A DNA stretch of 63,525 nucleotides, counting the filler, from Bilabrum cf. latius (Eukaryota), in the NCBI GenBank assembly GCA_965178125.1. It is 3 parts of 3 records of this genome, joined end to end, with 100 filler letters (N's around TTAATTAATTAA, not from the genome) between each part and the next. Parts side by side here need not be neighbours in the genome. Positions count along the whole stretch, not along the records: positions 50,636 to 63,525 come from CBCXTV010000062.1; 2 more parts are not named here. The stretch is one strand, 5' to 3'. Below are positions 21,979 to 63,525 of the stretch, one piece after another. The notes beneath the pieces are model-generated. The model worked only from the letters and a program-made list of their open reading frames with translations. It did no database searches and was not told the DNA's origin. The position numbers and the translations under genes are program-made. Numbering within the stretch: position 1 is the first letter of the stretch; each line of letters starts with the position of its first letter.

Positions 21979-21989
21979 AACCTTACACC

Positions 21990-25302: not shown

Positions 25303-25402
25303 NNNNNNNNNNNNNNNNNNNNNNNNNNNNNNNNNNNNNNNNNNNNTTAATTAATTAANNNNNNNNNNNNNNNNNNNNNNNNNNNNNNNNNNNNNNNNNN
25401 NN
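25303..25402. other. Artificial contig linker
   Basis: 44 N + TTAATTAATTAA (stops in all six frames) + 44 N. Confidence 0.97.
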
Positions 25403-38994: not shown

Positions 38995-39048
38995 TGGGGT
39001 CGGCCCCTGGTAGAAGCTGGGCGCACATGCACTGGCTCCCTTGCCCTG

Positions 39049-39972: not shown

Positions 39973-40082
39973 TGAACCGTAATCGTCAAGGCTGCCGTCG
40001 AGTGGTGAGTTCGGCGACACAGGCGTCTCCCGCGCAGGGGACGTAGGGGTGGATCGGGAGGAGAGAGTCCTGCAACCACGCT

Positions 40083-40094
40083 GCTCCGCTACCA
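40083..40094 (-). promoter_or_regulatory. Primer-binding site of element 1 (initiator tRNA-Met type)
   Basis: TGGTAGCGGAGC upstream of gag; the identical 12-mer follows the 5' LTR of element 3. Confidence 0.75.
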
Positions 40095-41669
40095 GGTCGA
40101 GAGACAGCCGCCTGGCCCGCGGAATCATGCGCTCTTGAGCCCAAGATGTACAGCAAGATGACCTTGAAGCTCGCGTAGCGACGAACCATGGCTGCTGAGC
40201 AAGGAGATGATTTTCCGCTGATGAGCGCAAGGGACCGCAAGTCAGGGGATTGTCTCGGGGTATGCTATACAAAAGGAAAGAACTTGTATGGCTTGCTGCA
40301 GCAATAGCCTGAGCCGTAGCTGCCAACACAACCATAAAGGTGCACTGCGAGTGCACCCCCTCGTCGGGACCCTCCTTTGCCCGTGCCCTTGGCCTCGGGT
40401 CCCTTCCCAGAGCCCCTGCTCTGGCTCCTGGCCCCACGGCCTGCAGGCGGTGCCTGAGCCTGAGGGGCAGCCTTCTGCGTATCGCGCCTCTGTGGAATGA
40501 CCATGCGCGCGTAGAAGTACTCGACACGGCGATTGGGACGGGGCTCGTGAACGGACGGGTGAATGCCGAACATGTCCTCGTGGAAGTGGGCGGCATTCCC
40601 CATGTAGATCGGTCCGTTGATGACCGCACGATGGCGCCGGTACATGCCGTGGGCGTACCGGCACATCCAATCGTGGGCTTCCCGTCCCAGCATTCCACCG
40701 GGCCACTCTCTCGGATTGGCCATCGGGTGGACCCTCGCCCCCATGGGCTCGTAGTCGATGTCAAGAGGGGTCCACGGAACGTCCAGACCCTCCGGGACCA
40801 ACTCGCCGCCCATTCCCGAGACGGGTTCCGTTGCCGCGGCACTTGCCACCGAAGGAGTTATGCTGGGAGGGGGGACAGGCGAGGCGGCGGGCAACGCTGC
40901 GGACGAACCGCTGCTTCGTCCGACCGCCTGTGCCGCTTCCTCCCCCTGCTTCGCTCCCTTCGGGGTCTTCTTCCTCTTCTTACTCGTCGCTCCGGAAGAT
41001 GCCGCGGCCGAGGAAGGGGTACTGGGCTTCGGAACGGCGGGAGCCGCTATGCCGCAGCTGATGGCGTACTTGGCTTCGGAACGGACGCAGTCGACGGCGG
41101 CGGTGCCGTCCCGGACCCTAATGCCGACGATGCGGGGACCGCCGAAGACGCTGGCTCTGCCCCTGGCGTCATCGTAGGCTTTGGCCGCTCAACCTCATAC
41201 GCGCTCTTAAAGAACTTCCTCGACTTCCTTTTCTCCCCGGCCTCCGACGACTGAGCTTCTGCCACCTCCTGCTCAGCCTTCTCCCTCGCCTCGTGCAAGA
41301 ATGCCGCCGCTTTCGCCTGAGCGTCCTTCCTCGTATTGGCGAGGATCTCATCGCGCGTCGCCCCGATCCTCACGGCGGCTGACGGCGTGAACTCGCCAAA
41401 GCGGGCGGCCAATTCTCCCACGCGCGACCTCTTCTCCTCCCTCGTCAACGCTCCCGTAGGCTTGACGACCCGCGACCCCTGTGGCTGGGGCGGCTCGGGT
41501 CCCAGGCGAAGACGCCGAGACCTCGTATCCGGAGCCGCGACCGAGGATGGCCCTGACTCGAAGGCCAGCGCGACACGTCGCACGGAGCCCCCCCGTTCCT
41601 GAGCTTGGACCGTAACACGGGGCAACGCTGCGGACGAACCGCTGCTTCGTCCCGCACCCGGCGCCTTGC

Positions 41670-44600: not shown

Positions 44601-47417
44601 CACAGAGATCCTCACTTCGCTCGGCGTCAGCATGGGATTGGGCACCTCCCAGTCGACAAGCTCGTCGTTGCCGGTCAATGCGATCCGTTCGGCCTGCTTG
44701 TCGATCTTCTCGATCTCCGGAACGCTGAGACCCGTTTCATCGGCGAGGCGGGCTCGCCTCTCCTTGACGGCGGCGGCTTGCTTCTTGAGCTCTGCCTCGT
44801 ACGTGACCCTTGCCTTGGCCATAGATGCCTGGTATGCCGCCTTCGCGTCCCTCTTCCTCCTCTTGATGCCAAGCTGGGCCGCCGCAGCGGGGGGCTCGCC
44901 TCCTTCCTGCGGGGCCCCTTCTTGGGCATCGCGCTCCTGCTCCTCCGCGGTGGTCGAACTCACCTCCTGGACAGAGCCGTAGTCGATGTCACTCAACTCT
45001 CCGGTCAATCCCAGATCGTCTTGTGCACCTGACTCTGCCTTTCGAGCAGCGAGCGCCTCTTCGCTGAGGACGGCCCGTCGCGCAACCACCGGGTCGCGGT
45101 CCCGATAATCCGGGTCATCTTCCTCATCCGTGTCCGGACCGGCGTCGCCTGCCGGAACGACCACGGGGGCCCCGGCGGGAGCGCGAGTGGCGTGCTTCGG
45201 GCTCGCCTCAAGCTCCTCCCGAACCGGCATCAGTCCGGAAGGGAGCTCCTCGCACATGTCCTCGTCGTCATCGCCGATGGGTGGCTCCGGCTTGGGGAGT
45301 ACGACGGCACTGGGAGCGGACAACGCTGCGGACGAACCGCTGCTTCGCCCGACCCCCTCGCCGCCGTGCTCCTCCGAGATCTCCGTCGGTTCGGCGCCGG
45401 GCAACGCTGCGGACGAACCGCTGCCTCGTCCGGACGCCTCCCCTCTGGTGACCTCGACCTCCGTCGGATCGGTGCCGGGCAACGCTGCGGACGAACCGCT
45501 GCTTCGTCCGAGCACCTCCCCTTCGGTAGGCCCGACCGCCGGAGAGTAACTCCGAGGTCTGCCCGGCTCCGGCTGGGGCTCGGGCATGGTCGACGGCGCC
45601 TCCTGCAACGCCATGGACGCCATCGCCTCCTCGGCCACCTCCAACTCGAGTTTGCCCTCGATTTCCTTCCGGACGATCTCACGCAACCTGCGATCGTCCT
45701 CCGCGTGACGACGAGCCCGCTCCTCCCTTTCCTCATCTGCCGGCAGTGGTGGAGGGGCGTCCATGGGCTCTTCCTCGGCCACAGGCAGGCGGGCCTCATC
45801 CTCCTCGTATTGGTCGGCGCCCAACCGTGCGGTAGCAACGATGTCTTTGCCCCGCATTTCCTCGAGTCGTGCGATGGGTCGGTCCACCGTGTCGTCGGGG
45901 TCAATCTCCTCGCCCATGGCAACCCTGACCGAATCGTTGATCGTCTCCTGGGTGGTTGCCATGAAGCTGAGATCGCACTTCTCATGTGGACCTACCTCCT
46001 CCGCCTCTTGGGCCTGCCGAATCGAGGCTCGCACTGCCTCCTTCGCCTCCTGCTCGAATCGATTGGGGGATGCCTCTGCCTCATGCCCCGCCCTCAATTC
46101 GAGATAGGCATCGCCCATGTCCTTGTTGATGAAGTCGTGCATCGAGCTACCTTCCAGAGAGATGTTCTGGTTGGTCTCCTTCCGATGCTGCTCCGCCAAC
46201 TCGTGGAACAAACGCTCCATTTCAAGGGCTGTGCCTCCTTGCCTCCGGAGATGCGGGTCTGACGCGTCGGCAATGGTCCGGGAGACCCCGAACAAGATGG
46301 CGGCGAGGTCGACGCTGTCCTCCGACGAACCGCCCTGGGAGCACGCTGCGGACGAACCGCTGCTCGCCCCTGCGCCTCCGAACTCCAGGGAGCGCTCCCG
46401 CACCCACTTCCTGTTGTGCGGGGCGGCCGAGACCCGGACCATGGTACATGCCGGGGAACATCGGAGGCCTCCTAGGACCTGGCTCCGAGACCGCTGGCCC
46501 CTGGGGCCTGCCGCGAGACTGCGCGGCAGGGCGCTCGGGAGAAACCGCTGGTCCCAAGGACCTGCCGCGAGACTGCGCGGCAAGACGCTCGGGAGAGGGA
46601 GCCAGGGGGCGGCGGGCCACGTAGGGAACGCTTTCGGCAGAGACGGGGGAAGAAGGGGCGGATACAGATCGCACCCCTGCGGCAGCCACGGGCGCGGGCA
46701 ACGCTGCGGACGAACCGCTGCTTCGTCCGACACCCGGGCCGCCTTCCTCCCCGCCATCCGCCTTCGCCTCCCCAATGGGCTCGCCGCCTCCGCGATCGTC
46801 TCCTCCATCGCGGCCGTACCCTGACCCTCGGCAATCGGGGAACCGCCCTCGAAGTAGGGGTCGACGGTGACTCCGGGCAACGCTGCGGACGGACCGCTGC
46901 TTCGTCCGGCTTCAACCGCCATTTCCCCAAGGTGCTCGGGCGACGCCGCTCCCTCCGAAGTGGACGGGGACACTGATCCCTCACCACGCGGAATCGCCCC
47001 CCGATATGTGCCGATGATCTTCTCCGGGGCCCCGACCTTCTTCAACACGTCTTCCAGATCGGTTTCGGACTCGAACCGGTCGTCTGCGAAAACGTCGAAG
47101 ATCTCACCTTCATCCTCCTCGCGCACCTGGATGGGAGCTCCCTGGGCAGGGCGTGGGCGCACGGTGGGCGAACCACCACTGTCACCCGGCGGCTTCGGAG
47201 AGGTGACGGGTCCCGCTGCGGACGAACCGCTGCAAACGGACTCGCTCCCCTCCTCGGCCTTCTCGCCCTCCTCCTCGTCCCTCTCGCCGCCGTCGGCAAG
47301 GGGCTGAGGGCCGACAGAGTCCGGACCATACCACTCCTCCCACTCCGCGCAAATGGCAGCGGTCCAGTGGGGAGGAAAACCCGTGGTAAATCCGGTCGTA
47401 CATGCTCTGCTCGGCAA
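41670..47417 (-). CDS. Large cargo protein with a Tpt1/KptA (RNA 2'-phosphotransferase) domain at about 44335-43660 and a following Cys-rich zinc ribbon; continues through frameshifts to about 40265
   Basis: FSRTINRWLRH...MDSGGWVRM...KSRF...VRVAQGHT...LWHHT...LESILMTGIQP..RPVHL...FVSTSGSVLCLDAIP follows the Tpt1 motif order. Confidence 0.8.
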   Translation of the reverse strand: MPSRACTTGFTTGFPPHWTAAICAEWEEWYGPDSVGPQPLADGGERDEEEGEKAEEGSESVCSGSSAAGPVTSPKPPGDSGGSPTVRPRPAQGAPIQVREEDEGEIFDVFADDRFESETDLEDVLKKVGAPEKIIGTYRGAIPRGEGSVSPSTSEGAASPEHLGEMAVEAGRSSGPSAALPGVTVDPYFEGGSPIAEGQGTAAMEETIAEAASPLGRRRRMAGRKAARVSDEAAVRPQRCPRPWLPQGCDLYPPLLPPSLPKAFPTWPAAPWLPLPSVLPRSLAAGPWDQRFLPSALPRSLAAGPRGQRSRSQVLGGLRCSPACTMVRVSAAPHNRKWVRERSLEFGGAGASSGSSAACSQGGSSEDSVDLAAILFGVSRTIADASDPHLRRQGGTALEMERLFHELAEQHRKETNQNISLEGSSMHDFINKDMGDAYLELRAGHEAEASPNRFEQEAKEAVRASIRQAQEAEEVGPHEKCDLSFMATTQETINDSVRVAMGEEIDPDDTVDRPIARLEEMRGKDIVATARLGADQYEEDEARLPVAEEEPMDAPPPLPADEEREERARRHAEDDRRLREIVRKEIEGKLELEVAEEAMASMALQEAPSTMPEPQPEPGRPRSYSPAVGPTEGEVLGRSSGSSAALPGTDPTEVEVTRGEASGRGSGSSAALPGAEPTEISEEHGGEGVGRSSGSSAALSAPSAVVLPKPEPPIGDDDEDMCEELPSGLMPVREELEASPKHATRAPAGAPVVVPAGDAGPDTDEEDDPDYRDRDPVVARRAVLSEEALAARKAESGAQDDLGLTGELSDIDYGSVQEVSSTTAEEQERDAQEGAPQEGGEPPAAAAQLGIKRRKRDAKAAYQASMAKARVTYEAELKKQAAAVKERRARLADETGLSVPEIEKIDKQAERIALTGNDELVDWEVPNPMLTPSEVRISVGQLFRTDPAIQNDSLLNPPDTVDPRDLAGTSFQRDLLNIRMRDEFYVASRDANMLAWSLFMLQTGSEQFPDFFKRAERFRVNMGAKIVDEFSRTINRWLRHEVGVTVPRTGGGGYNLKAVALPMDSGGWVRMDHLRNRLNNMVSRRLIQRELTMMELQFIVLGAGKSRFQVGMRKRTAADHTVRCTWEFVRVAQGHTLEFIRMERLALRSPDTRVMKKLNQGLWHHTEAKNLESILMTGIQPANRPVHLAFLAPWNLEASTAYRAGASTSGVFLRVDLDRLYDVVRRDSVFVSTSGSVLCLDAIPSCCVESVVTLNPVSRVYTHLWHRSWMADVPTQVAIRGNAPAALRKRDEIRAQADEERSKAEGRSSGSSAALSGGQAPAQVPGGTAEGRSSGSSAALPRSQTPGAGTRKEKGTRDPAFRIVAEWMKQPLVMETAVNPVEGCVDKSFKCPICDARVIAGSTKCAAVRNEGEPECGTLFGYRPRRQPVEAAVAQPTELVQAQEALRTLRREYYRDPTDELGKKRKATSDENTASRLVTKQRNRIMAWTSQTKEGEEYRRNEAQKKGTVLSTAPTCTEAWVVPPGLMSPTPGEVTVREKAQSFFTYWAAAYLGEAQTDSTNPTDVRIRAETRALTMACRFMPQDAIIRHISEFEEVVANDPGGLWDWIVETLSGPEAGIDDRIATCFATIDRDRAIESLVDTMRVWGDHDVIFVNPDAQDDPIDASRTARQRAGLARAAAARAMSSKEASRALVSTNSGVQRLSRMFARVRRSGHEEMGAFSLKVVPKLDADVEMQAAPAGPAGAPRSMSASEVKELKPGRSSGSSAALSSAKPSGTKQRVTGKKKEAPASVAIKEEPVVRTGVATEIRTGIAKEIKGKKGGRSSGPSAALSTSEAPIATAEATESVVAAAEAKAVPTAKEEGESAPTKKKKKKKKKKKEEEEEEEEEEEEETPQATCGGGAGKEGTKRGDAPFP
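41744..41815. repeat. (TTC)n microsatellite encoding poly-K/poly-E, with a 1-base phase shift
   Basis: Seen directly. Confidence 0.9.
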
Positions 47418-48815
47418 GCTCCCATTTCATCCGATGAAGAGTCTCTTTGAGATCGTCGAGCAGGGCCGCCCTGTTGCGTGCCCGCTCTACTCGCTTGGCG
47501 ATCTCCTCATCGCGCCGCACGAGGTCCTTGTGCATGTCCCGCGCCTTGAGATGGGCCTGGCGGGCCTCTTCGCTGACCACGCACCCGTCGGGATCGATGT
47601 CGATGAACCTCTTGAGCTCCTCCACGAAAGTGAACCGGGCGGTGGCTGCAAGCTCTTGCGCCCTGAACCTATTCGTGAATGGGGAGTCCCACCGCGTCTC
47701 CGACGGACGGATCCCTCCATAGGACGGATCGGTGTCCACGAACTTCCGCACGTCGATGTATGTGTGGTGGTAGACAGACGCATCAGCCAAAGCTTCAGGG
47801 GCGCGCCGCTCCGCGTCATACGAATATGCGGGTGCTGTGGGCACGCTTCCCTTGAGCCGGTTGAGCCGTCTCACCTGGGCCTCCTTCGGTGCCAGGGACG
47901 CCAACATCATCAACAGCGACGTTTCGTGGACAAGCGTGTCTTTGGACTCGTCGGTGCGGCACGAGTGCCAGTTGTCGGTCCTTCCCTCAGGGAAAATGTA
48001 CCGGTGCTCGCTGAGCCCCCGGCACAAGGACCATCCACTGGTTGTGACCGTGCCGATCGAGTCCATCGCGACGCGTGCTTGCGACATTGAGACATCGAAG
48101 CTCGAATTGCGGCCCTCTCCGTACAGCCTGCCATGGTGGCACACTGCCACCAGATGGCTGTCGAACATCCGCAAATAGCCCCTCATCTTCGCCGCGTCTT
48201 CGGCCAGGAAAGTAGAGTCCTCCCAGTACACGCTGTTGCCGGACCAGATGACCAGCGCAGCGTGACCGGGACCCATATGCCACTGCGATCCTTTGGCGCG
48301 AAGCTCGGGGTCGGTGACTTCGTAAAGGGGCCACTTGTCCACCGCGATCTCGAGCTGCTCGATGATCCCCGCCATCACCGCTCCTTCCGTGGTGTAGTCG
48401 ATCATCTTCGTCTCAACGTCGCAATTGAGGTGCCACGAGCGGTTTCCCAAGTGCCACTTGAACGTCTTTCCCACCGTGAGCCACTCGCTCTTGTTGCGGA
48501 GGCTCGCCCCTTTCCTGGCGTTCCCTTGTCGGGGTGAAACTGCATCTGGAAGTAGATCCAGCACCGCTTCGCCTTGGCGTATGGCGTGCTCAGGGGAACG
48601 TACATTTCGCGGTGGAGATCCCCAACGCTCTGCACGAGCGCCAATGCGTAGGCGTACTTCCACTCCACGTATTTCCTCCAACGCTCCCGAAAGGGGAAGC
48701 GAGGAAGCAACCCGTCCTTGTCCCGTAAATCCTTCAACGGGATTGGGACCTCATAGCCATAGTAGCGCCGCCAGGTGTGTGGCACGAGCGTGGACAAGAT
48801 ATCCTGCCCCGCCAT
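47182..48815 (-). CDS. Element 2 upstream cargo ORF (frameshifted), unknown function; weak SGNH-like motifs
   Basis: MAGQDILSTLVP start shifts into track ORF 47182-48681; LVIWSGNSVY and DNWH resemble SGNH blocks III and V. Confidence 0.4.
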
Positions 48816-49063
48816 CTGTGCCACCCCAATCTGCGGGCTTCTGCGGCTCCTCTCCTCCTTCTCCTCAGACCGGCTCCGCGGAGGTGTCCGGGAGCACGGC
48901 CTTAGGACGCCGAAGCGTCGGGGGTTGACCCTGGGGTCGAGCGGGGTCGCCCGAAGGCGAAGGGCTGGGGCGCACGGGTGCGCGAGCGCAAAGGGCAGCC
49001 GGTCGGCGCGTCCCTTCGAGTTCTGAATAAGAACGGCATCGCACACGCGCTCATCCCCATCCT

Positions 49064-49795
49064 TCACCAGACCTTCCGACACGACCTTGACCACCCCTTA
49101 TGAATCGCTCTCGCAAAGGAATCAGGATAAATCTCCGATGCTTTGGTAATAGACCCCTCGCATCGGACATGATGGAAACCCCCACCATGGGAACATGACA
49201 AGTGGGACCCGTCATCCCTAAGGGGTTTTCCTATCCCGTCCAAGAGCGAACGGACGGTAGAATCGACACGCCATAATTGCTCCCCGCGGCGCGGGCCGAC
49301 GTGGGCCACAAGACCCACTTCGCATCCATGGACAACCATGGAGCGCATGTTGAGCGACCGCAACGTGTCGCGAATGGCAACCTGGTTCGTCCCGTCCGGA
49401 CAGCGTCCCTCCTCAGTCCAGTGCCAGTAGGAGCAGGCCAACGGCCACTCCCATGCCAGGTCGGCCTTCCCAGACCGAACCCAGGGCAGCACCACCGAAC
49501 AGAAGGACTCCCAAAGACGCCTGAGATCATCCCAATGTTCCTTAATCTTATCCTGCGTATCGGGGTTTCCCTTTCTCCAAGTTTGCCTTTGCCACGGAGA
49601 CCCGCCCGTGCACGGACAAGACACCCATATCAACACAGGGTGTGCGAGAAGCGCCGAAGTATGCGGCTCACCTTGCACCTGCCTTTCATGCACCGGAAAT
49701 CATCCACCAACGTGATGCGAAAGACGCGACACGAGGGATGGGCCACAGCCCCAATGGTGGAGGTCGCAGAGCAACAGATCTCGATAATAACGCGC
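49064..49795 (-). CDS. C5 cytosine-methyltransferase-like domain fused after RNase H (frameshift near 49660)
   Basis: VIIEICCSATS (motif I-like), IWVSCPCT (IV, PC), AWEWP (VI), VHGCEVGL (VIII region), SEIYPDSFARAI (X-like). Confidence 0.6.
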
Positions 49796-49989
49796 GAAAC
49801 ACCCCCCGAACCCCCCGGACCCCCAAAATCCCCCCGTCCGTGCGGGGGCGGGGCCTCGGGGCCCGACAACCCACAGAACGCTGCGGACGAACCGCTGCTT
49901 CCCACGGGCGCCGGAACGGCGGCTTCCTCGGCCTCAGCTCGCAGGGCCGCCTTCGTCGGGGGCGGGTTCGCCCAGAAGTGGATATTCCC

Positions 49990-50535: not shown

Positions 50536-50635
50536 NNNNNNNNNNNNNNNNNNNNNNNNNNNNNNNNNNNNNNNNNNNNTTAATTAATTAANNNNNNNNN
50601 NNNNNNNNNNNNNNNNNNNNNNNNNNNNNNNNNNN
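50536..50635. other. Artificial contig linker
   Basis: 44 N + TTAATTAATTAA + 44 N. Confidence 0.97.
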
Positions 50636-51972
50636 GCAGGAGCCGGGAACCCGCTCACGTGTGAGGACGGGCGCGGAGCGCCGTGGGGACGGCCGGAACG
50701 CAAAGGTCCCCGGCCGGGAAGGGGCCCGAGGGCCCGACCGCCTGGGGAGGGCGGTCTCACAGCACAAGGGGCGCCGGGGCCCGGAGTTGGGCCCCGACGC
50801 CGGCCCTCCCGGAAAGGGGACGGTCGGACGGGTCGGGTCCGGCGTCGCGCGCACGAGACGGGCGCGAGCTATTTCCCCTCACTGGCTCCACGTCTCGAGC
50901 TCACAAAGTGACTGCGGACACGCGTACACGACGGACGACCGCAAGAACGATAAACGAAGCAAATCACAGCGATCTGGCAAGCGTCACTACCTGGCATCGC
51001 TTTTCCGCTCTCCCCTCGAGATCCCAAAAACAACAAGCCCTGGGGATGTGGCACGCTTGAGGCGCCGAAGCATGTCGTCGAGGACCGGCGTTTCATGGGA
51101 ATTCAATGCAGCCGGACACGGCGCACCTCGACAGCCAGAGGTTCACATATGGCATGTGTCTTCCACCGACATCTGAGATTCCAGTTTCAACACTGAAGAG
51201 GGGATTTTTAGCGCCAAGGCCCCCGGGTCGCATACCAAATTCCCCACGACTGTCGAGCCGCCAACGGGCTGATGGACGGGCGCGCGGGCGGGCGGGCGGA
51301 CGCTCGCGGGCGCACGCCTCCCAGCCGGGGCCGGGGCGTCCCGAGAGGGCCCACACACGGATGCGGGAGGGTCGGAAGGTGGTCGACCCCACACGTGTTG
51401 GCAAGGTGGAGCCTACGGGCTTGAAACCAAATCCTCAGCAACAGGGCTGAGGCGGGCGGAGCTTGCGAACCTGAAACCCGTCGGGAAGGCGGTGCGCCCA
51501 CTGGCCCTTCCGCACCCGCTGTTCGGCGAGCCCCCACGATGTGCCGCCCCCGGGTTGAGCCACGCCGGGGGAAGAGAGAAGTGGCGCAGCCGCGCCTGCT
51601 CGGAGGTCCGGGGGGCCGCCAAAGACGGGCCGGTGCGCTGGCCCGGAGTGTAGCGGCGCCAAGCACTCCCGACCTTGGTGAATTTTGCACGCTCATACCG
51701 GGCGAGCTGCGGCGGCCCGAGCACGTGGGGGGGGCCACGCGCGGCACCATGTTGCTGTACAAGTGATGGGCGCCCAGGCCGGGTAAAAGGGTATGATGCA
51801 CCCCGGCTTCGTTAAGCAAGCGGTCGTGCGACGGGCCAGGAGGGATTGATGGCAAGACCAATGCATAAGCAGCGTTCCAAGCAGTCTCACGCCCGAACCC
51901 CGGCCATTTGGCAAATCGGGGCTCGATTCGGCAGAACGCGCGACAGGGTTAGTACGATTGGGGGTGTTGAAC

Positions 51973-52071
51973 CGGCCCGGGCACGGCCCGAAGCCCAGTC
52001 CAGGCCCGGGCCCGGGCCCCGGTCCGCGGGCCCGGGACCGGACCCGGGCCTGGGCCCCAGGCCGGGCCGGG
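51973..52071. repeat. Degenerate (CCCGGG)n tract, left flank of element 3
   Basis: Seen directly; a matching tract lies at 62864-62920. Confidence 0.7.
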
Positions 52072-52072: not shown

Positions 52073-52300
52073 GTTGCGTCAGCCCCTCATGTATCATCGC
52101 ATTCGCACTGACATTCCTTACCAGGCCGTCTCCGCAGTGTCTCCGACATCACCAGCAATATCGCTGGATTTTCTTGTACCGACGAGTGGCGATCCACCTT
52201 TGGTGCAACTCCGAACCATCCCCTTGTCTGTCGCAACATTGGCAATGGACGACCTCATCTTGAGCCCGATCGACTTCACATCCGCTACCACCAACTTCCA
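52073..52300 (+). repeat. 5' LTR (only its 3' part is recognisable)
   Basis: Blocks CATCGCATT.GCACT, GCCGTCTCC...GTCTCCGAC.TCACCAGCAAT...GTACCGACGA and ACCACCAACTTC are shared with 62655-62863. Confidence 0.75.
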
Positions 52301-52302
52301 AG

Positions 52303-52314
52303 TGGTAGCGGAGC
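52303..52314 (+). promoter_or_regulatory. Primer-binding site of element 3 (initiator tRNA-Met type)
   Basis: LTR end ...TTCCA, 2-nt spacer AG, then TGGTAGCGGAGC. Confidence 0.8.
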
Positions 52315-52462
52315 ACGATTTGAGGACCGACGGACGCCAGAATTGCATACCACGACGAGGGAGTTTCGCGTGAGCAAACAAGGATTCATCCTTGCAGTTT
52401 GACACCGAATCTCGTGTGAGTGAACAGGTGTTCTCACCTGTTGCCAAACGTAATGCTCACCT

Positions 52463-55400
52463 TTGAGGACTTTGAGAGTGACGTCAATTACAGCAACGGC
52501 GGCTAGGCATACGCAATGGAGCAACGAACCCTGGCTCTGTTCTCGGAATCCACGGCATCACAACGAAAACCCCTCCGTCCTTCGACGAACGTACCTCCTG
52601 GTTCTCCTACGCTGCTCGGGTCGACGACGGGTCGACCTCACAGTGGTGAACGCCGAGAAACACGGACCAGCACTCAATCACAGGCTCCTCGGACGAGAAG
52701 CAATCCACGAACCGCTCTTCGACAGAGACCTTCTCAAGGATCCGGATACCGGTGTACAGTACTTCAACGACACACTTCGACCGCACTTCGTGAAAGGCAA
52801 CCAATCAGTGTTCCTGTGGCGGTCATTCTAGTTGCTGCTTTGCAACAGAAGTACTTATGACCTCGTGAAGTGGATCGGCAAGTTGGCAGTCCTACATAAG
52901 CGTGTCCAAGACGCCTGGACAGACCTTCTGCCGGCCATCGACGACAACAATCCCGAGTACCGAGCACAAGCAGTTCGCGCCAACGCCGTGCGATCACGGG
53001 ACGGACGCAACACCCTGGACCCTCTTGACCCTGAGGTCTTCGCCGAGTTCACGGAGCGCAAACAACGTCTCCAACGCGAAAACTTTCCGCTGAACGACCA
53101 CCTCTTCACGTTGACATTCGTCGCCCTTTCCGACTTGACGGAAGAACAGCGCGAGCGGCTACAATCCACCAAATCTCTCCGAAAACAGCGCATCCAAGAC
53201 TACACCTTTGACACAATCCGGGGCGTATTCGTGGAACTCTTCTGCGCACCGCGCAGCAGCCGTGACAGTCCAAGCCTACGATCCGGCGGCACCGGCCGTT
53301 CCTTCTGGATTCTCTGCATTCTCGAGGATGGACACATGGACTGCTACCAGGGGTTCTGGTGTCAAGACGACATGACCAGCGACGAAAGCTTCTCGCCAGA
53401 GGACACGTTCTGGGTCTTCGACGAGACCGCCGAGCTGACGGCCATGACGCACATGCTTTCATGACCGATCAAACCAACACAACAGCTTCTATGCAAAATT
53501 GGCGGACAAGTTTGACGCAATCCTGCGTATATGGCTCTGGATCTTGGGTGCACACGAGCCATGGGATCCAGAAAACCATGCGAAGCCTTCGCGAAGGAGG
53601 CTTCCTGGCACGGCATGCATGTGCAATACCCACCAGGCCAGACGAATTTTGCCTTTGCCAACGGGAAGACAACGAAGGTGACGACGACCTGCACTATCTG
53701 GTTCCCGACGAAGCCGCCGTCTCCCACACAAGTCGACGTTATCGACGAAGGCGCTGTTATATTTCCTTCTTCCTCAGATGATGATCCGTGTGGAACCAGG
53801 TTTTGCGTACGTCATCGGTCTTCCTTGCTGACTCAGGACTTGCGACTTGAGGTCTCTACGACAGAACATTCGGCGCTCGACTTGGCCTCCCTTCGCCACT
53901 GCCCGACCGGTCCAACGATGACCGTGACGCCGGGCGTGACGTTCGCGACGCACGGCACAGTTTGTGAGCGAAGGCCTGACACACAAGCCCCGAATGAGGA
54001 GACCGCGAAATCGAGCGCCGTGCCAGTCGGAGCACACGAGCGAGACCCCAACTATCCGGCGTGTCAAGGAAAACGCAGTAAACACGCGCGCGGACGCATT
54101 CGCAGGGAGATGGACGCCAACTTGTACGCCGATCCCCCCACGCTAGAGACGCTGCCGAGGTTCCGTGTGAGCGGACGAGAACTGACGCTCCGCCCGAGGA
54201 TCCGCGCCAAGAACCAGGCGCGCAAAAGGAAGTGGTGCGCGAGCGGTCGCCTCGACTCGAGCACCCGTCGGACGTTGGACGGATCTCAGGATCCAACACA
54301 GGACCGACGGAGCGACGCGACGCCCTCCTGGATCCCACTCCTCCGGTCCCGGAACCGCCTCCGGGGAACGATATCGACTAGGAACAAGGCGCGGTCCCGG
54401 CTGATTGCACGCCTGGACGACGACACGAAGCTTTGAGGTCTCCACCTCAAGCATTTCCCTGTGTCCACGTTGCAGTTTCTCAGACGAACTCCGCATCTCA
54501 ACCTTCCGCAGAAGATCTATGACCGCTTCGACCGTGTGATTCGCACTTGCGAATACTACAGCCGGCACCAGCCGGCGCCACACTGAGGCCTGGTGTCCGA
54601 CTTGCACGCAGAGAACTTCGGAGATCTTATCTTCTTGGACCATGACCAGGTGAAGATCAACGCGCAGAAACTCTTCCTCATCGTCCTTGCCGGAGTCACT
54701 GATTTCCTGGCGGCCTATCCTCAGACGACGCCAAGTCCGGAGGACATGGTCAGGAACATTCACGACTGGAGGGACACCTACTCGTGCAATCCCAAGCGCG
54801 TTGTTGCCGACGTGGCTTGCCACACACCAAAGACCGTTCGAGATTTCGTTCGGCATCGCAACGCTCGGCCAATGCTGACTGGACCGGCCACGCTGTGGCC
54901 CAACGGGGTCGAGTCTGGCGTATGTCTTTTCAAACGATTCTCCCGGGCACTCGCCGACGTCATGAAACGACCCAACCTAAGCCATGTGACTCCCCGACAA
55001 CTCATTCGCAAGGCCGCCGCGGCTCGCAACACGTCCATCGCCAAGAGCGGCAAGACACCGCTCGAGCTTGCCCTCTGTCGCCGGCCGCGCGATCTCCTCG
55101 ACGCGTCCACCGCGGCCCCGCAACGACCGACCGCGCAAGGCCGGGCAAGACAGACGAGGGGATCCAGAAGGTCGCCATAAAGATCCACCTTGAGGTCACG
55201 CAGCCGGAGGACCGCCGAAGAAACCTCGCCGCGTCCCTCTGGTTTATTGACGGAACATGCTTCCCAGGAGACCGTGTGTAGTACTGGCAGTCCAATCCGT
55301 CGGACATCCGGCATCGGCCAGTGGATTAAGGCGATGGCTTTCTCCGTCAGTGGGCCGATCTGCACCATCGACGCCGGCGCTTTGCTTCTCAAGGTCAATC

Positions 55401-58400
55401 AGTCGAAGTTGAAGAAGGAGCCGGACACTCCCGACAAGGATCGTCCGATCTCCAGCTCGCCCGAGTGATTCTCACGTGAGCGAGCGGCAGACGTCATTGA
55501 TGCACCACCCGGGGACAATCTTTGGCAGTGCTCTCACGGCGAGCCGCAACTGCCTTCAACTCTTCACCACTTCCGCACGTCTGAGCGCCGTTCTCCAAGT
55601 TAGGACTCAAGGTCGGACCGCCGACCGACACCCAATGTCAGACATCAAGCGACGCCGACGCGCTCATTACCAAGAGTTGACAGCTTGTTGAGCAGTGCGC
55701 CCCGTCCATTGTCTTCACGAGTCTCATTGACGCCGGGGCGAGCAATAGATCTCGCGTGAGCGCGCGGGTCAACGACTTCATGTTCGAAGTCGCCGCCTAT
55801 CAGATATCACGCGGACAGAGCTTTGTCTTGGGACTTTCAGAGCACGATGACTACAAGTACGAGGCTCCCTTCTCACACCGAGGCCAGCTCCCAAAGGTTC
55901 AGAGGAAGTGACGCAAGTTGCTTCATGACCGGGCGCCACGGAACGATACAGCCAGACAAGAACACGCCGACGCTGCGCCTCGCAAACAAGCTTGGCAACT
56001 CCATGGGGACAATTTTCCGACGACGCCCCGACTCCAATTCCCCTGACTCTCCACAGCCGGACTCCGCGGATGTCCAGTCTTGGGCATCCAGCGGCGTCAT
56101 GTCCGACCTGTTTGCCCATGACGCGGGCACGACGTCAGAGCCGGAGCAATGCTTCTTCCTGTCCGATGTGCTGGGCATCATGGCGCCCACCGCGGCCGAG
56201 GAGAAGGGGCTCTGCTACGACCTTAAGTCCCGCGTGAACGGACGGTCGGCTCGTGCGATGCGCACGGTTTCGGCGTTAGCCGGCCCAGAGCCAATAAAGA
56301 CGACGCTGAGTCCGAATATCCGCCAGGCCACGGCGGCGCTGGACAGCCTGCCCCTCGGGCGCCAGGTTTTTTTCTGGCGGACAACACCACCGCCATGGCG
56401 TCTTTCGCGGTTCCACACCTGTCTTCCCTTCGCTGGCGCTATCTTCCGGGCCAACTCTTCTACCACAGCAGAGTACTCCGAGGAAACAGTGGAATCACCA
56501 TGTCGGTGCGAGGAGTGGAAACAGAGGACAACGTTTGGGTCCTCATGTGGCAGACCGGCCAACATGACCCTGGAGTCCTCGGATGGCGATGGCTCCATGG
56601 ACGACAGGACGGTTACGCACGCAGACACGCCGATCCGTCCATCCCACAAGATCCTGACGGTGGACCGCCGCGGCCTCAAGGCGCCGGCCCGGCACATCAT
56701 AGGATCTCGTCAGCTCCCGATCCCGAACAGGACCGCGGGGGAGCTCAGCAATCCAAGAGTCACCAACGCCGTCGGCACCGGCGGCGCCTCCGGCACCTCC
56801 GTCACCTCGCGCCCATGTAGCGATCGCGATCGCAAGGGCGTGTGCCGTTGCCGCCTGCGAGACCGGCGACGCCGCTTTCGAGACCGGCGACCCTGTCCTT
56901 CCTACGCTAGGGTACGAGGACGAACATCCACACCGAGAGGCAGTTCTCCAAGACTCCGACAGAGACAGTGACGACGGCACACCTGCTCCAACAAGCACGA
57001 CAGGAGGGCAAGCAATGGGCAACCAAGCAACGGTCCCGCATCCAAGCCAGGACTCAACGGACAACCCTGCTACAAACCACTATCCGGAAGACTTCAACGT
57101 GTCCGACTCCCCCGCCTGCTTGGCAATGAGTTCGTCCGCGCACAGGATTGCATCGAATGCAAGATCATTCTCTTGCGTTCGTGGCGAGCTGAACCACCCC
57201 ACGACATCGATAGCATGCGCACACCGCCTATGGTACTGACCACGTGCTTCGAAGGCCCCACCTTCCTCTCACGTGAGTCTAGCATGAGCAAGCTGCAGTT
57301 GCGGCAAGACTTAGCCCTTGCGACAAGCGCGGCCGAGCAACGCGACCTTCAACAGTGCCCGAAGGCTGCGTCAATGGCAACTAAGAACCCGCTGAAGAAC
57401 AACGCGAGGAAGGAGGTCTCTTCCGCAAACCTCCGAAAGTACAAGGAACAGTTCGACCAGGCCCAGAAGCATGAGTACAAGTCGGACAATGACGTCGTCA
57501 GCCTCATCGACGATCGACGTCCGCAAGACCAAGCGTCGCAACTTTGTGACCGGACGTTGGGCGTTGACGATAAAGACCAATCAGAATGGAGCGTTCCGCA
57601 AGCGCAAGGCATGCTGGGGTCGTACGAGGTTTTCAGGAAGACAGACAGACGACCAACAGACAGACTCACCAACCGCCGCGCGACCAAGTTCCCGTCTTAC
57701 CTGCCAATTCGCTGCGCAGAGGTACGCGCGTCTTTCACATAGACCTCAAGACCGCCTTCCTTCAAGGCGAGGCGTACGTTGAAAGCCTGGCGTGGCTTGT
57801 CAAGCGCCTCTCGAGGGAGGACACCCTCGGAAAATCGCAGCTCGGCATAAGAAGCCAACATACGGGGCGATTCGCGCTCCGGTCGCTGGTGATATGGCTG
57901 ACGGGAAGTCCAGGTTGTATGGCATGACCCAAATGCGTCCGGATCCTGACCGTTATGTTCTCTATGATCATGCGACGAAGTCTCGCCTGAGCGACCACGA
58001 CAGTACTGCTAACACGTCTCGCGTGAGCAAGCCTGCGCAGAACTCGAAACTCAGCCGTATTCCCAGTACGCCGGACGCGGTCGAATACTTTCTCGACCCG
58101 ATCACCGGAAACCCGGCGCACGGGGAAATGCGTCGCAAGTGTGATCTCCCTGCACGTGGACGATCTGTTTGCGACAGCTGACCAGCTGCTTCAATACCAG
58201 TTCATCGCGCTGACTTCCAGGTCGGAGCAGAGATGCAGGACAATGCCTACTTTCTTGGCGAAAGAAGAATCCCCTGGTCTTCTACCGGAACAGCGCGCAA
58301 AGTGAAACGCTCCATACGAGTTGACCAAACCCTGGCTATTGAGGAACTCACAGAGATCTCCCTGGACCGAGGCATGAAGGGCGACGCTCCGCGCGCACCG

Positions 58401-59180
58401 AGCACGCGCGCCGCCTACCGCAGCGCGCTCGGACAACTCAACTGGTTACAGGCCCGCGCACAGTTCCACATCTGCTACCGTTTCTCGCCCTGCGCCTCGG
58501 CCTCTGCCGCGGCGACAATCGCCGACGTTCGCGCAGAGAGCAAGGCGGTCCGCGCCGTCCGTGCGACCCCTGTCACATTGAACTTGTTTGGCCCGTTCAC
58601 GGGACTCTCCGACTTGTCGGCTCTCCCGGCGCAGCATATCGGAACAACGCAGACAAGACATCGCAACGGGCACATGTGACGCTCCTCTGTGTCCCGCGTG
58701 AGCGGGCGGAAAAGAACACTTTTGGCTCTCTCATCACTTCGAAAGCCACAATGTCGACAGAACAGCCCGCTCCACCGCTGTCTCCGAACTGCATGAGTTC
58801 ATGAAACCCGATGGACGAGGCCAAGTCCTTCGCGGCCTGTGGATGGACATCCCTGGAGAAGTCGCCGACATTCACATGCACACCAACGCAAACAACCTAG
58901 CGGGGACCGCACCCACCACACACCTGCCAACACAGACGGACCCGATCCATATGATACAGATGCTTCCCAAGGAAGCGTGCTCGGGAAGCCTCCACGACTT
59001 AGCGTACATTCGAACCGCGCGCTCTTTTTCCGGCTGCTTAACGAAGCGCTCAGCCAAGCCACTCGAACTCATTCGCGCGCCCGCACTTGAGTCGGGAGTG
59101 CAACGTGAAGTGCATCTACATCCGAATTCTCGCACACTCACCAAGCATCGCGCCTTCTTGGCAGAGTGGCAGAGCATGTA
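52463..59180 (+). pseudogene. Fragmented gag-pol of element 3
   Basis: gag LRPHFVKGNQSVFLWR; PR MALDLGCTRAMGS (53531); IN LHLKHF, FGDLIFLDH, WPNGVESGV; RT HIDLKTAFLQGE (about 57740) and LHVDDLF (about 58150); many stops and frameshifts. Confidence 0.85.
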
Positions 59181-59699
59181 CACGAATATCGACCGAGGCT
59201 TCACCTCGGCGTCGGCAAGAGGTGAATGCGATTTCATAGGTGAATTCATGAGGTTGAAGAGGCTACGAAGACAGCGTCTGCATTTCGGTTTCGTGCCTCT
59301 CTCGTTTTTGCATTGTGTACATTGCATGCCTGCGTGCTTGTGCTTATTGCGCTCGCTTCATACATTTTTATGGGCTGTCGCTTTCCTGCAGTAGCCTCCG
59401 ACTCTGGCAGTGGCCCCATGCGCCAACGCTTTGCGTCGCAACGCCGCAGCCGAAGCTAGTATCGCGTGAGCGAGCTTCTGCTGCCCGACTCGTCGCCCGT
59501 TCACAAGACACCGCCTCAGAACACCTCGACATATACCGCCTGTCACAACAAGACATGAGGTCTCTTTGGGCGGCGTTCTTCCACAAGTCTCGCATGAGCG
59601 AGCCGGAAGTCGCCGACGAAGGTGAGGTGCCCAATCTAAATTGGGCAGCGAATGGGCGCGCGAGGTGCGAGCGTCGAAATGGCTCGCCCGCTCCGTGAA

Positions 59700-60300
59700 G
59701 CGCCTCGGCCTGACGATGACCGCTACCAAAATAAGCGTTCCTCATCAAGACCTGGTTCCCAACGCCCGGAATCTTGTACGCCGTCGTCAACCAGAATGCC
59801 AAAAGACGGTGTGAGCTCTCATGGGCTCATCAGTCTCGCATAAGTGAGCGTTCCGCATTTGCGCGGTGACAGGTCACAACGTCCGCGGCGTCGATCCCGC
59901 CGTGTCATCTCGCCAAACCTTTGCAGGCGAGGATAGCATCCCAGCGCGATGTGACCCGCCAGTGCTCGCTCCAATCGCGAGCGTCCCAACAATGCGCGTC
60001 CACGGCGCACGACTCGACAACGTACAAGGCATCCGGCGACAAAACTTTCTCCCCGGCGGCCCCCAGAAGTAACGAAATGCCGTGCATGTGGTAGCGCCGC
60101 TACCGGACGATGGCCAACGCGCTCTGTCGGGCCTCAGGGCCAATTCGGCGGTCTACATAGTCTTCGACCTCCACAACTGCTTGTTGGACGGTCGCCGCGC
60201 GTTCCTTTCGGAGAACGACGCGGTCTACATCTACGAAACGATCCCCATCTCATACGCGAGGTCCATCTTCAAGGTGTACGCGCGCAAAGAGATCTTCGGC
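59700..60300 (+). pseudogene. Degenerate Tpt1/KptA-like cargo domain of element 3
   Basis: In one frame: RICAVTGHN...VHGARLDNVQGIRRQNFLPGG..*RNAVHV...SGLRANSAVYIVFD...FLSENDAVYIYETIP. Confidence 0.7.
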
Positions 60301-62411
60301 CCGGAGCCCCGTGACGACGTGCGGACGATCTTGGACGATCATGTCCATGTGTTGGATACATGTTCAGCAATGCGCCAGAGCAAGTGGCGAGTGAAAATTA
60401 CACAAGACGCGCTCGCAAGATCGTGGTCACTAGAAGGCGACCGCCGCTAGAGGGGGTACATCGAAATACTACGCGACGCGGCACGCGTGATGCAGCCACT
60501 GCTCCGGGGCCCCCGGCGACACTGCCGACAACTGCCATGCAGCCGGCGCAAGTCTCGCATGAGCGAGCAAGTGACACCAAGCAAGAGGTGACCAAGGAAG
60601 AGGCCGATGAATGCGGCCGCCGCCGCAGAAGTGGTCAGTACTGGGGCCAATGCAAGGACCCGAAGAAGGATGATGCGAAGGAGGTCCGGTCCGAGCGCGC
60701 CAGTCTCGCGTGAGCGAGCATCAGAAGAGGAAGTGTCGATGCAAGACACATCGACGGCAGGAGTCTCGCACGAGCGACCGCGTGCCTCAAGCTCGGCCTC
60801 ATCAACATCGCACTGCACTCGGCGCTTTTCGAAAGGCTGGCATCTACGTACAGAACAGACGACGGCATTGAGGAAGAATACGATACACCAAACCTTGACA
60901 TGGAGACCTGCGTCCACGATCAAGAACTGAATTCCAACGCCCAAGACAGAAGCGCCCAACTGGGGCGTCTGCGGCACCGACGCGGACAGAGGACCCACGC
61001 GTGGATCCAAGCGCTCTGGCTCGTCTCGACGCTGCCAACTTTGGCAACTTGCAAGACCACTGTATGGCCAAGTGCTTCGAATTCTCGACCGGCTTATTTC
61101 CGTCCGGCTACGTGAAGAGGCTCGCCGACAGCCTTGACCAACATCACAGCGACTCCCGGCAACTCAGCGCCTTTTTCGTGACCTTCGGCGCGATCGTCAG
61201 GCCGTTGAACGAGATACCAAAATCGCAATGAGGTGTTTTGTCAGTGCTGGGGTTAAAAGTATGCTCAGAGTGTTCTGTCATGCGAGGCAGACACAACTGC
61301 CCAAATGGAACAGGAGACGTACGAGCGGTTCGGACTGGTCGGCAAGGGCAGCGAACACGGCGCGGATCTTGCCGTCTGTGCGCGCGGCCCGCGCACCGGC
61401 CCGAACGCTGTCCAAGTCCAGCTCATGTACGAGTTCCTGAACGACGGGACCCACGCGGCCACATACGACGTCTTCTTTGGCAACGTAGACAGTTCGCCCG
61501 ATTAGGGCGCCCCATCGTCGGCATCGGCGTCGCAGTCTCGCGTGAGCAAGCGCGCCTCTCAGTCTCGTGCGAGCGAGCACGAATGTGGCGTCAAGCGCGC
61601 CGGGACGGAACAGGTTCGCGCTACGGTGTCTCATATAGACCACAAAACCGCTTTCGAGAAGATCGGCAATGCGGAACGTTGCTTCACCTCGTTCCCCACA
61701 ATCGTGCTTGGAGTACAAAATGGACATCTACGCCTGAGATCCGGTACTACGGCAAACAACATGCAACGGATATGCCCTTTTCGATCGTGCAATGCTTGGC
61801 GCGCAGGCTGCTACACGATGTCAACAAGGACTTGCCCTTCGCTCGCCGTCTCTCCCAACAATCACAATGGCAACTTGACGAAGGATGATCCCGATTGTTG
61901 TGTCATGGCGAACTGAGGCTGGGGCAAAAGTACTCTCTCCAAGCTCGTCCGCGATTAACTGCAAGACGAGACCGCCGAACGGACATCTGAAGACACGCCA
62001 TGGCCGAGCAAATACTCCATAACGCCCTGCAACGCCTTGAGGCGCCTGGGAACTCCGACCTGACGACTGTTCCATTCGACGTCCGGCAGAGCCTCCACGT
62101 CGGACGCAAAACCTTGTGGCTCCCGGACACCGACTGCAGCTGGCACCTCCTGATCCTCGTCACATTGCGGGGGAACAGCAACAAGAAGTGGCGCCATAGC
62201 GGTCGGAAACGGGACAGAGCAAGACGATTGGCCGGAAAAGGGATTTCGCAACCGGCCATCGCAATCTCAACGGCCGTCGTGGCAAAATCAGTCTCGCATG
62301 CGCGAGCGGGGGTCAAGCGATGTGCGGTCAAAGCCGTACTTTCCTACAGATGCAGCTTCTTCTTTCCCCACTTCTCGCAAATGGGAGCAACAACAGCAAT
62401 CGTACTGCTCC

Positions 62412-62423
62412 AAGTCGGGGGAC
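62412..62423 (+). promoter_or_regulatory. Putative polypurine tract
   Basis: AAGTCGGGGGAC immediately before TAAAGTT, the near-inverse of the LTR end AACTTCA. Confidence 0.55.
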
Positions 62424-62863
62424 TAAAGTTGGGACTATGACCAGAACGGGGATTCGATCATCGGTGTGATGGAGAAGTCGAAGGGGATGGGGAACATCGC
62501 CAGTGAGATCTCAGTGACACAACTTCGCGTGAAGGAAGAAACGAGCGGTCACCGCATCTCACTGGGATTGAGATCGCCTGTACGATACAAATACACGCCC
62601 TGGTTTTTTCCGACGGCGAAGATAGCGTCTGTCTTTGTGTGCAGCGCAGGGCCCGTCGCGTCAAGCCCACATAATCCATCGCATTAGCACTCGCGTTCCC
62701 TACCCGAAGCTATTTCGCTTCCAAGTACATGCGCTTGCGATTCGCAGCCCAAACGAGCCGTCTCCACACCGTCTCCGACGTCACCAGCAATCTCGTTGAA
62801 GTACCTCGTACCGACGATCCAGAGCCCCATCCATCGACTCTACTTGCGCGACCACCAACTTCA
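62424..62863 (+). repeat. 3' LTR of element 3 (about 440 bp)
   Basis: Termini TAAAGTT...AACTTCA (one mismatch from a 7-bp TG..CA inverted repeat); homology with 52073-52300. Confidence 0.7.
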
Positions 62864-62920
62864 CCGGGCCCGGGCCCGGGCCCTGGCCCGGGCTCCGGCC
62901 CGGGACCGGGCCCGGGCCGG
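62864..62920. repeat. (CCCGGG)n-like tract, right flank of element 3
   Basis: Seen directly. Confidence 0.8.
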
Positions 62921-63525
62921 TTCCCTACCCCCAATCCTACTAGCCCCTGTCCTCCGTTCTGCCGATCGAGGGACACCCCCGGTCACTTGAGTCCTTATTG
63001 GTGTGGCGTTCCGTCGCAAGCCGAGCAAGCACTTTGGCGCAACGCGTCCATCCGTCGAGTCGGCCTCCACTCGACATTCCCAGCTTTCTGGCCCGCCACG
63101 TTATTGGGCAGAGCCCCTCTCTGGTCATCCGCCCCAAGCCCGCCCCGGCCATTGAATATAAATAGCGGGTCGCGCCGCTTTTCCATTTCACACAGGTTTT
63201 TGAATGGACACCCCGGTGTTTTCCAGGTGCCACCGTATCCCCCCCTCCATCTACCAATTTCCGGGTCGGCGTCCCTGCTTGGCGGCCGCGGGAACACTTT
63301 TGGTGCTGGAGGGCCGCAAGGGCTTCGGCCCGACCGAGACAAGTCCTCTTGGGCGGCTGGTATGCCGGGCCCAAGCGCCTGCACCGTCACGAGCGGCGCG
63401 ACGATGCTTGTTTTGCCGCATACCGGATCTGCCAACCACCGCTCTGTGCAACCAACATCTGTGTGTCCAGACTTGATCAATGCGGACCTTTGGGCGTGTG
63501 GGTGCTTGGGTCGCTACTGAATGCG

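Follow-up and report, generated by a model that had tools for sequence, protein, structure and literature searches.

Why does a decayed retrotransposon carry one short, predicted hairpin many times over, always on the same strand and in a version that its neighbours lack? The question is raised by element 3, an old copia-like long terminal repeat (LTR) retrotransposon in a 63525-base stretch of DNA from Bilabrum cf. latius (assembly GCA_965178125.1), hereafter called the window. A sequence-only reading of the window had noted a motif, here named M3, in about 17 degenerate copies between the LTRs of element 3, and had proposed that each of three elements in the window carries its own such motif as a putative 'recognition code'. 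Our analysis suggests, by analogy with sister motifs, that M3 is the private version, in element 3, of a class of small hairpin modules, and that it would work as they do.

Results

M3 is repeated on the sense strand of element 3

When the motif TCTCGCRTGAGCGAGC was searched at up to 3 mismatches, 17 matches were found in the window, 17 of 17 on the + strand and all inside 52364-62307, with none elsewhere. Dinucleotide shuffles (n = 100) gave a mean of 1.39 matches and a maximum of 4, and 0 of 100 reached 17, so the reported repetition on the + strand of the element is confirmed. The positions listed earlier agree with these 17 matches; a further one, 57267, proved to be an 11-nt half copy. 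Element 3 and its M3 copies, all on the + strand, are as follows:

52125 to 52185, + strand: 5' LTR-like repeat core, 82% to 62757-62817 over 61 nt
52300 to 62650, + strand: internal part of element 3, decayed and copia-like, with many frameshifts and stops
52303 to 52314, + strand: primer-binding-site (PBS)-like sequence TGGTAGCGGAGC, directly 3' of the 5' terminal repeat
52364 to 52379, + strand: M3 copy with 3 mismatches, in the leader, 3' of the PBS-like site and 5' of the first gag ATG (52516)
52410 to 52425, + strand: M3 copy with 3 mismatches, likewise in the leader
about 54440 to 55400, + strand: integrase-like trace
55470 to 55485, + strand: M3 copy, 1 mismatch
55750 to 55765, + strand: M3 copy, 1 mismatch
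57267 to 57277, + strand: M3 half copy TCTCACGTGAG, 11 nt, abutting the copy at 57278
57278 to 57293, + strand: M3 copy, 2 mismatches
57577 to 58600, + strand: reverse transcriptase (RT)-like trace
57981 to 57996, + strand: M3 copy, 2 mismatches, in frame as SRLSD, in an RT-loop insertion
58017 to 58032, + strand: M3 copy, 1 mismatch, SRVSK, in the RT insertion shared with the copy at 57981
58692 to 58707, + strand: M3 copy with the compensatory pair TCCCGC..GCGGGC
59460 to 59475, + strand: M3 copy, 1 mismatch, whose fold shows a 10-bp outer stem
59588 to 59603, + strand: M3 copy, exact
59834 to 59849, + strand: M3 copy, 2 mismatches
60553 to 60568, + strand: M3 copy, exact, at which Logan contigs start or end
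60704 to 60719, + strand: M3 copy, exact, with Logan contig joints at the copy
60764 to 60779, + strand: M3 copy, 2 mismatches
61536 to 61551, + strand: M3 copy, 1 mismatch
61563 to 61578, + strand: M3 copy, 2 mismatches
62292 to 62307, + strand: M3 copy, 1 mismatch
62757 to 62817, + strand: 3' LTR-like repeat core, partner of 52125-52185

Three copies are exact (59588, 60553 and 60704). The conserved block is 18 nt long (AGTCTCGCRTGAGCGAGC), with a predicted 5-bp stem and 4-nt loop, and 14 of 17 copies have G directly 5' of the motif (AG in 12 of 17). In an alignment of 44 columns the consensus was confined to columns 13-30 and ended outside them, so the copies cannot be explained as fragments of some longer duplication. 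The variants are mostly CpG-decay transitions, for example GCGAGC to GCAAGC in 4 copies, and the A variants of the loop could reflect CpG decay of CGCG. Copies are denser at the 3' end, with 9 in 59460-62307 (2.85 kb) vs 8 in 52364-58707.

Because the terminal repeats are weak (61 nt at 82%), the placement of the motif 'between the LTRs' is just roughly right. The sequence TGGTAGCGGAGC at 52303 may resemble tRNA-iMet primer sites. A Pfam search of 30 open reading frame (ORF) pieces of element 3 gave no RT at E ≤ 0.01 and just two weak, chance-level matches. The RVT_2 ORF of element 1 (below) did match element 3 by tblastn, at 57577-57819 (+; E 0.003) and 58407-58598 (+; E 0.54), and a weak integrase-like match (54440-54550, +; E 2.6) lies upstream of these RT traces. 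Since the element 1 RT frame matches on the + strand, element 3, apparently copia-like, is + oriented, and the M3 copies are therefore in its sense strand. A protein search with the element 3 gag piece for longer proteins found none, and thus no intact relative of element 3. A weak trace of Tpt1 is seen at 60073-60447. The element is flanked by inverted copies (79%) at 51922-52026 and 62865-62970, which include a palindromic (CCCGGG)n microsatellite; these flanks look as if the insertion had hit the centre of a long palindrome.

Elements 1 and 2 carry hairpin motifs of their own

The window consists of three contigs, with element 3 on the third; the artificial linkers between them (44 N, TTAATTAATTAA, 44 N) occupy 25303-25402 and 50536-50635, so the position of elements 1 and 2 next to element 3 is biologically meaningless. 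A k-mer count showed two further private motifs, M1 and M2, each confined to one strand, with 9 copies in 26478-38938 and 14 in 40893-49877. Both elements are encoded on the minus strand of the second contig, where their long open frames lie, and not on the + strand as had been supposed for all three; M1 and M2 are nevertheless on the sense strand of their own element, as M3 is in + oriented element 3. The claim that each of three elements has a distinct, strand-specific, partly palindromic motif thus stands. The features are as follows:

26478 to 38955, - strand: M1 hairpins of element 1, sense core GGATGCCGATCGGCTGAA, n = 9
+ strand starts of M1: 26478, 28893, 29196, 29778, 31335, 33316, 34852, 36986, 38938
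40893 to 49902, - strand: M2 hairpins of element 2, sense core CGAAGCAGCGGTTCGTCCGCAGCGTT, n = 14
+ strand starts of M2, first half: 40893, 41624, 41926, 42112, 43399, 43474, 45322
+ strand starts of M2, second half: 45403, 45481, 46342, 46700, 46879, 47212, 49877
41673 to 47426, - strand: 1918-aa cargo frame, downstream of the element 2 pol remnant

The minus-strand frames of element 1 are, in order, 602 aa (gag-like), 2570 aa (zinc knuckle, RING, protease-like, integrase-like), 936 aa (RVT_2, E 2.8e-7), 673 aa and 421 aa. Single in-frame stop codons part most of them; the 936-aa frame is shifted relative to the 2570-aa frame. The part with Gag and the zinc knuckle occupies the minus-strand frames 39052-40857 and 31339-39048. 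Element 2 is the tail of another element, upstream of the element 1 frames. Besides an RNA 2'-phosphotransferase Tpt1/KptA domain (Pfam E 7.7e-14, aa 1032-1242), its 1918-aa frame contains a long run of K and E.

All 9 M1 copies have the same predicted fold: an outer stem of 9-13 bp whose sequence differs per copy, a 1-nt bulge, a 4x4 internal loop GGAU/UGAA and a tip GCC-GAUC-GGC. Pairing was 96.0% of cells vs 72.7% in shuffles, and 0 of 500 shuffles reached the score. Both sides of the outer stem were changed in 8 of 11 pairs (covariation 0.645 vs 0.192), and G.U pairs are present in the sense stems. The 14 M2 copies share another common fold (14 of 14), again with variable outer stems, and were paired at 84.5% vs 76.3% (0 of 500 shuffles). 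A K-turn or box C/D structure, considered for GAUG...CUGA of M1, was rejected; the fold has a symmetric 4x4 internal loop and a 1-nt bulge, not a 3-nt bulge.

The hairpins are read as codons in long open frames

Copies of M1 and M2 lie inside open frames of 2570, 1918 and 936 aa and are read there as codons; the 2570-aa and 1918-aa frames pass uninterrupted through 4 and 11 copies. M2 mostly reads GRSSGSSAAL. M1 reads in three phases (GCRSAE, DADRL and MPIG-stop), and because of this use of three phases selection would be on the nucleotides and not on the peptide. In element 3, two in-frame M3 copies lie within about 45 inserted aa that separate the RT motifs YVLYDH and HVDDL. Their readings, SRLSD and SRVSK, together with the one prevailing phase of M2, would suit selection of an SRVSE-like peptide, for example a protease cleavage site of the polyprotein or a phosphorylation site. 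We regard this as the remotest of the explanations considered here, since conservation is of nucleotides, synonymous positions included, two M3 copies are in the untranslated leader, and the loops of M1 and of the related locus L012 (below) use all three phases.

The same frames bear on whether the hairpins are very short non-canonical introns that are removed from the RNA. Hairpin introns exist in Amoebophrya (PMC7789003). The copy of element 1 at 31335 holds the stop of the 2570-aa frame, a TGA within the hairpin core (31335-31368, -), and the RT frame resumes in another phase; removal of the 50-nt hairpin (2 mod 3, fitting codon boundaries) would fuse the 2570-aa and RT frames. However, P0002, a protein 89% identical to element 1, has one continuous frame through this integrase/RT junction hairpin, so that the window copy at 31335 seems to carry a frameshift in the hairpin's left arm. 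Introns are also opposed by the uninterrupted frames just described, by the predicted hairpin lengths (41, 43, 44 and 50 nt, mostly not multiples of three) and by the position of 40 of 40 L012 hairpins in open frames, and we consider them very improbable. Cleavage and ligation of the tRNA or Ire1 type, tied to the Tpt1 cargo, was also rejected, because Tpt1 is clear just in element 2 and the frames are continuous. The 673-aa cargo of element 1 is unrelated, the element 3 trace is weak, and the cargo of loci L012 and L009 is without Tpt1. A spliced-leader relic and a U1-site decoy were dropped because the motifs of other families do not fit them.

Private motifs recur in some related elements

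The element 1 RT frame has 96 homologues at E ≤ 1e-5, the named sources being Polarella glacialis and Amphidinium carterae (40-42% identity). Repeated linker peptides occur at the same sites in P0003 (GGQPTEA, at least 10 times), P0005 (G(R/G)QLAEA) and P0007 (GRELPET). The linker sites of P0012, P0050 and P0059 are without repeats, so the hairpin modules are insertions. A scan of metagenome contigs gave 56 related loci, of which the 39 that were at least 4 kb long were examined for motifs by exact 10-mers, 8-mers or a loop census. A clear private motif, on the sense strand only, was found in 13 of the 39. At up to 2 mismatches the M3 string itself had no match in 57 related loci. The motif types were:

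L002 and L003: M1 architecture in a variant form whose tip differs
L013: motif GAAGGGGGUUUCCCCGAAG
L024 and L026: motif GGCUCUCGGAGUC
L012 and six sister loci (seven loci): loop A-AUCA-U as the sole constant part of the hairpin
L016: related five-base loop AAUCA

CpG-richness, suggested earlier as typical of such motifs, does not characterise the class; the loop AAUCAU is used by one family. A constant apical module with a variable outer stem was found in L002, L013 and L024. L012 has 40 A-AUCA-U hairpins on the sense (+) strand vs 0 on the other; all 40 are in ORFs of at least 200 aa, and the loop phases are 26/8/6, all three being used. Loci about 76% identical to each other retain orthologous hairpins, and compensatory changes are seen in them at positions 1177 and 2661. 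A quick RT tree placed each motif type in a single clade, with motif-less clades in between, although near-copies inflate this clustering. Hairpins are often paired, 27-81 nt apart, in the window and in the loci: M3 at 52364/52410, 57981/58017, 60704/60764 and 61536/61563, M2 in the close groups 43399/43474 and 45322/45403/45481, and L012 at 4165/4192 and 7604/7631.

The patchiness of the trait on the RT tree raises the possibility that the hairpins are selfish or mutational by-products, tiny palindromic insertions that spread within an element and are tolerated in linkers. They are indeed insertions relative to the motif-less P0012, P0050 and P0059 at the same linkers, they pile up in unconstrained parts (the low-copy 3' 2.85 kb hold 9 of the 17 M3 copies), and strain-specific, hairpin-forming insertions into genes are known in a related lineage (PMC7789003). 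What such spreading does not account for is that orthologous hairpins are kept with compensatory changes, that the loop is constant while the stems vary freely over the 40 copies of L012, and that all copies have a single orientation; moreover, a copied insert hardly gives variable outer stems. On this balance by-products seem to us quite unlikely.

Single orientation and conserved folds would equally be expected of a sense-strand RNA element that binds host factors, for export, stability or control of translation, or as a shield from RNA silencing. The evidence for a cis-acting RNA element is the same in both cases. The metagenome families may live in different hosts, which could explain why their motifs differ, and element 1 and L002 share the internal loop GGAU/UGA(A/U) with different tips, as if on a common platform. 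Against this, three unrelated motifs are present in one assembly, where a host factor should favour one motif per genome, and 26 of 39 relatives manage without a motif. Host factors are an unlikely explanation, although one to be taken more seriously than by-products.

Strand preference and joints at M3 copies

Orientation alone is compatible with activity of either the genomic RNA or the minus-strand complementary DNA (cDNA). The hairpins might act in the latter, or have a role in reverse transcription, such as pausing, template switching and recombination, or extra plus-strand priming on very long elements. The sense fold was the stabler one in M1 (9 of 9), M2 (12 of 14), L002 (10 of 10) and L024 (14 of 14); it was not the stabler one in L013. 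In L012 the antisense windows folded better (27 of 33), so thermodynamics gives no common answer on the active strand.

Logan contigs from four public runs of one organism bear on the same point. They show the gag and RT parts of element 3 as highly repeated and 59.3-61.8 kb as low-copy, within a low-copy 3' part that extends over 59.3-62.4 kb. Split alignments of these contigs break exactly at M3 copies (52380, 58032, 60568, 60719, about 60551, 60700-60703 and 61533), so some copies of the element have lost or duplicated sequence between hairpins. The two-piece alignments are 52380/62624, 55426/61533, 60568/60700 and 60719/60551-60577; one contig links the leader hairpin (52380) to the 3' end (62624), omitting 10243 nt. 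These joints hint at deletion derivatives and unequal recombination between hairpins. They would suit a role in reverse transcription, as would the L012 folds, but any repeat yields joints at its copies with no function needed, and the stabler sense folds and the G.U pairs in sense stems speak for RNA. We give a cDNA or reverse-transcription role little weight, on a par with by-products.

Other features of the window

Single in-frame stops split gag from pol, or pol from cargo, across the copia lineage. In the window they are at 39049-39051 and 28688-28690, and among the loci they occur in L005-L012, L015, L017, L022, L024, L030, L032, L033, L047 and L053. Nearly all metagenome loci use TGA as this stop; the window has TAA or TAG. 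Such single stops between long frames suggest stop-codon readthrough. In several loci the TGA is followed, about 20 nt further 3', by a conserved palindrome, cggcaattgccg. A RING finger lies within a long frame of the gag-pol type in L012 (7076-11701) and L009 (7145-11104; Pfam zf-RING_2, E 8e-8 and 4e-10, respectively), and a similar Cys/His pattern is visible by eye in element 1 at 31339-39048 (-).

The first contig carries telomere-type (ACCCTA)n at 1-605 and interstitial blocks of this type at 3427-3644 and 9483-9700, which are surrounded by arrays of a 155-bp satellite (897-14796). Directly adjoining the satellite, without a linker, 10.5 kb (14795-25302) match a complete 3.4-Mb prokaryote genome (G001:C1:2929696-2940207) colinearly at 100% identity. 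Either the contig is chimeric or contaminated, or the segment was transferred very recently to a site beside a telomere.

Discussion

Proposed function of the hairpins

In this dinoflagellate-type copia lineage, about 9 to 40 modules per element are spread along the sense strand, over leader, gag-pol and 3' cargo. Those within reading frames sit in insertion-tolerant linkers and are translated, and it is the nucleotides and the fold that are conserved, not the peptide. The single orientation, the constant loop or tip with covarying stems, the use of all codon phases, the persistence of orthologous copies and the placement in linkers and leader point to a cis-acting nucleic-acid element under selection. 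The explanation that we favour, tentatively and at somewhat less than an even chance, is that the hairpins are dispersed, family-specific recognition or packaging signals for a protein encoded by the element.

The key steps would be as follows. Hairpins in the genomic RNA would act as repeated binding sites for a protein of their own element, with Gag/nucleocapsid as the candidate partner. Within one genome, the RNA of each family would be recognised by the proteins of that family but not by those of any other, and the outcome would be the probable packaging of the cognate RNA. We infer three points here: that it is RNA and not cDNA which is active, that the element encodes the partner, and that packaging is the outcome. 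The genomic RNA is the likelier active form because the sense fold is stabler in M1, M2, L002 and L024. Element-encoded partners, as opposed to one shared host factor, are favoured by the coexistence of three different motifs in one assembly. Retroelement packaging signals usually lie between the PBS and the gag ATG, and two M3 copies are found between the PBS-like site and the gag ATG. In a more specific form, which we regard as possible but less probable than the general one, each family would thread 10 to 40 hairpins of its own in frame through the linkers of polyprotein and cargo, as a barcode read by its own Gag, such that only cognate RNA, captured cargo included, enters particles.

Several results weigh against recognition signals, and most of them concern M3 itself. 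The sequence-only reading had described M3 as a hairpin with a GNRA-type loop when R is G. The loop is GNRA in 10 of 17 copies (GTGA in 9, GCGA in 1; ATGA in 3, other in 4), but covariation is weak: the 5-bp stem is paired in 88.2% vs 85.6% in shuffles, 14 of 500 shuffles reach it, and just 2 cells are compensatory, for example at 58692. Outer stems around M3 were dropped from consideration, since folds with the core enforced showed none beyond chance relative to shuffled flanks (mean z 0.01). Sense and antisense stability of M3 did not differ (9 vs 8), and L012 favours the antisense fold. CpG decay in this old element may have eroded any outer stems of M3, and its assignment to the hairpin modules is made largely by way of the sister elements. 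Beyond M3, no motif was detected in 26 of the 39 loci by any of the three counts, and the hairpins are thus dispensable for such elements. Family-specific motifs do recur outside the window, in 13 of 39 loci and, as linker peptides, in P0003, P0005 and P0007, but the trait is not general as had been claimed. The diversity of motifs among metagenome loci could also partly reflect differences between hosts.

Comparison with known systems

Small palindromic repeats that are translated inside coding sequence are known from bacteria as Rickettsia palindromic elements, which are mobile at the DNA level and occur in many genes. The present hairpins are similarly small, palindromic and translated; unlike these longer bacterial elements, they occur within one retroelement family and in one orientation. 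In retroviruses and Ty1, packaging (psi) and dimerisation signals are one to few structures restricted to the 5' region, leader stem-loops bound by Gag or nucleocapsid. They resemble the present hairpins in their sense-strand, element-specific loops, and two M3 copies are likewise in the leader; the difference lies in the 9 to 40 copies along 10-14 kb, mostly within ORFs.

Among established concepts, packaging-signal-mediated assembly in RNA viruses comes nearest; in it many dispersed stem-loops share a recognition motif for coat protein (PMC6281560). In such assembly, with MS2, picornaviruses and the hepatitis B virus pregenome as examples, stem-loops occur genome-wide, coding parts included, with a short constant motif and varying stems. 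Dispersed stem-loops on the sense strand only were also found here (M3 17:0, M1 9:0, M2 14:0, L012 40:0). Unlike viral packaging signals, these are carried by an LTR retrotransposon, are far more uniform (up to 18-33 constant nt) and differ from family to family.

The introners of Amoebophrya, a related lineage, are non-canonical, hairpin-forming introns with inverted repeats of 8-20 nt (PMC7789003), and they too are strain-specific hairpin insertions inside genes. Introners are spliced out and need not be translatable, whereas the present hairpins are stop-free in long open frames and are read through in P0002. The frame interruption typical of introners was absent from the 2570-, 1918- and 936-aa frames, from the 40 of 40 L012 hairpins and from P0002, and terminal inverted repeats were not found around M3 (mean z 0.01).

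Rfam 15 gave 0 matches at E ≤ 1 for 26000-63525 on both strands. In the accessible main texts of the literature we found no description of such hairpins in retrotransposons, nor the motif string, and PMC5776459 has 0 occurrences of hairpin, stem-loop or motif. The hairpins would thus be cis-acting recognition hairpins of retroelements, a known kind, with a putative function; what appears new is that they are multiplied, private to a family and threaded through coding sequence.

Implications

How LTR retrotransposons choose their own RNA among competing families is poorly understood, and the hairpins bear both on this and on whether multi-site packaging signals work beyond small RNA viruses. 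Such signals would be legible from sequence, by constant loops, free stems, compensatory changes and the use of three codon phases. Intact elements with open gag genes exist, so cognate and non-cognate binding can be compared directly. The frames traversed here indicate that strong RNA structure can thread thousands of codons of open frame, and they flag the linker peptides of these polyproteins as by-products of selection on RNA. For annotation, the hairpin motifs offer a simple family marker in very repeat-rich protist genomes. If each family does bar-code its RNA for its own Gag, retroelements would offer their first natural example of packaging-signal-mediated assembly through family-private signals, together with ready-made orthogonal pairs of RNA tag and protein.

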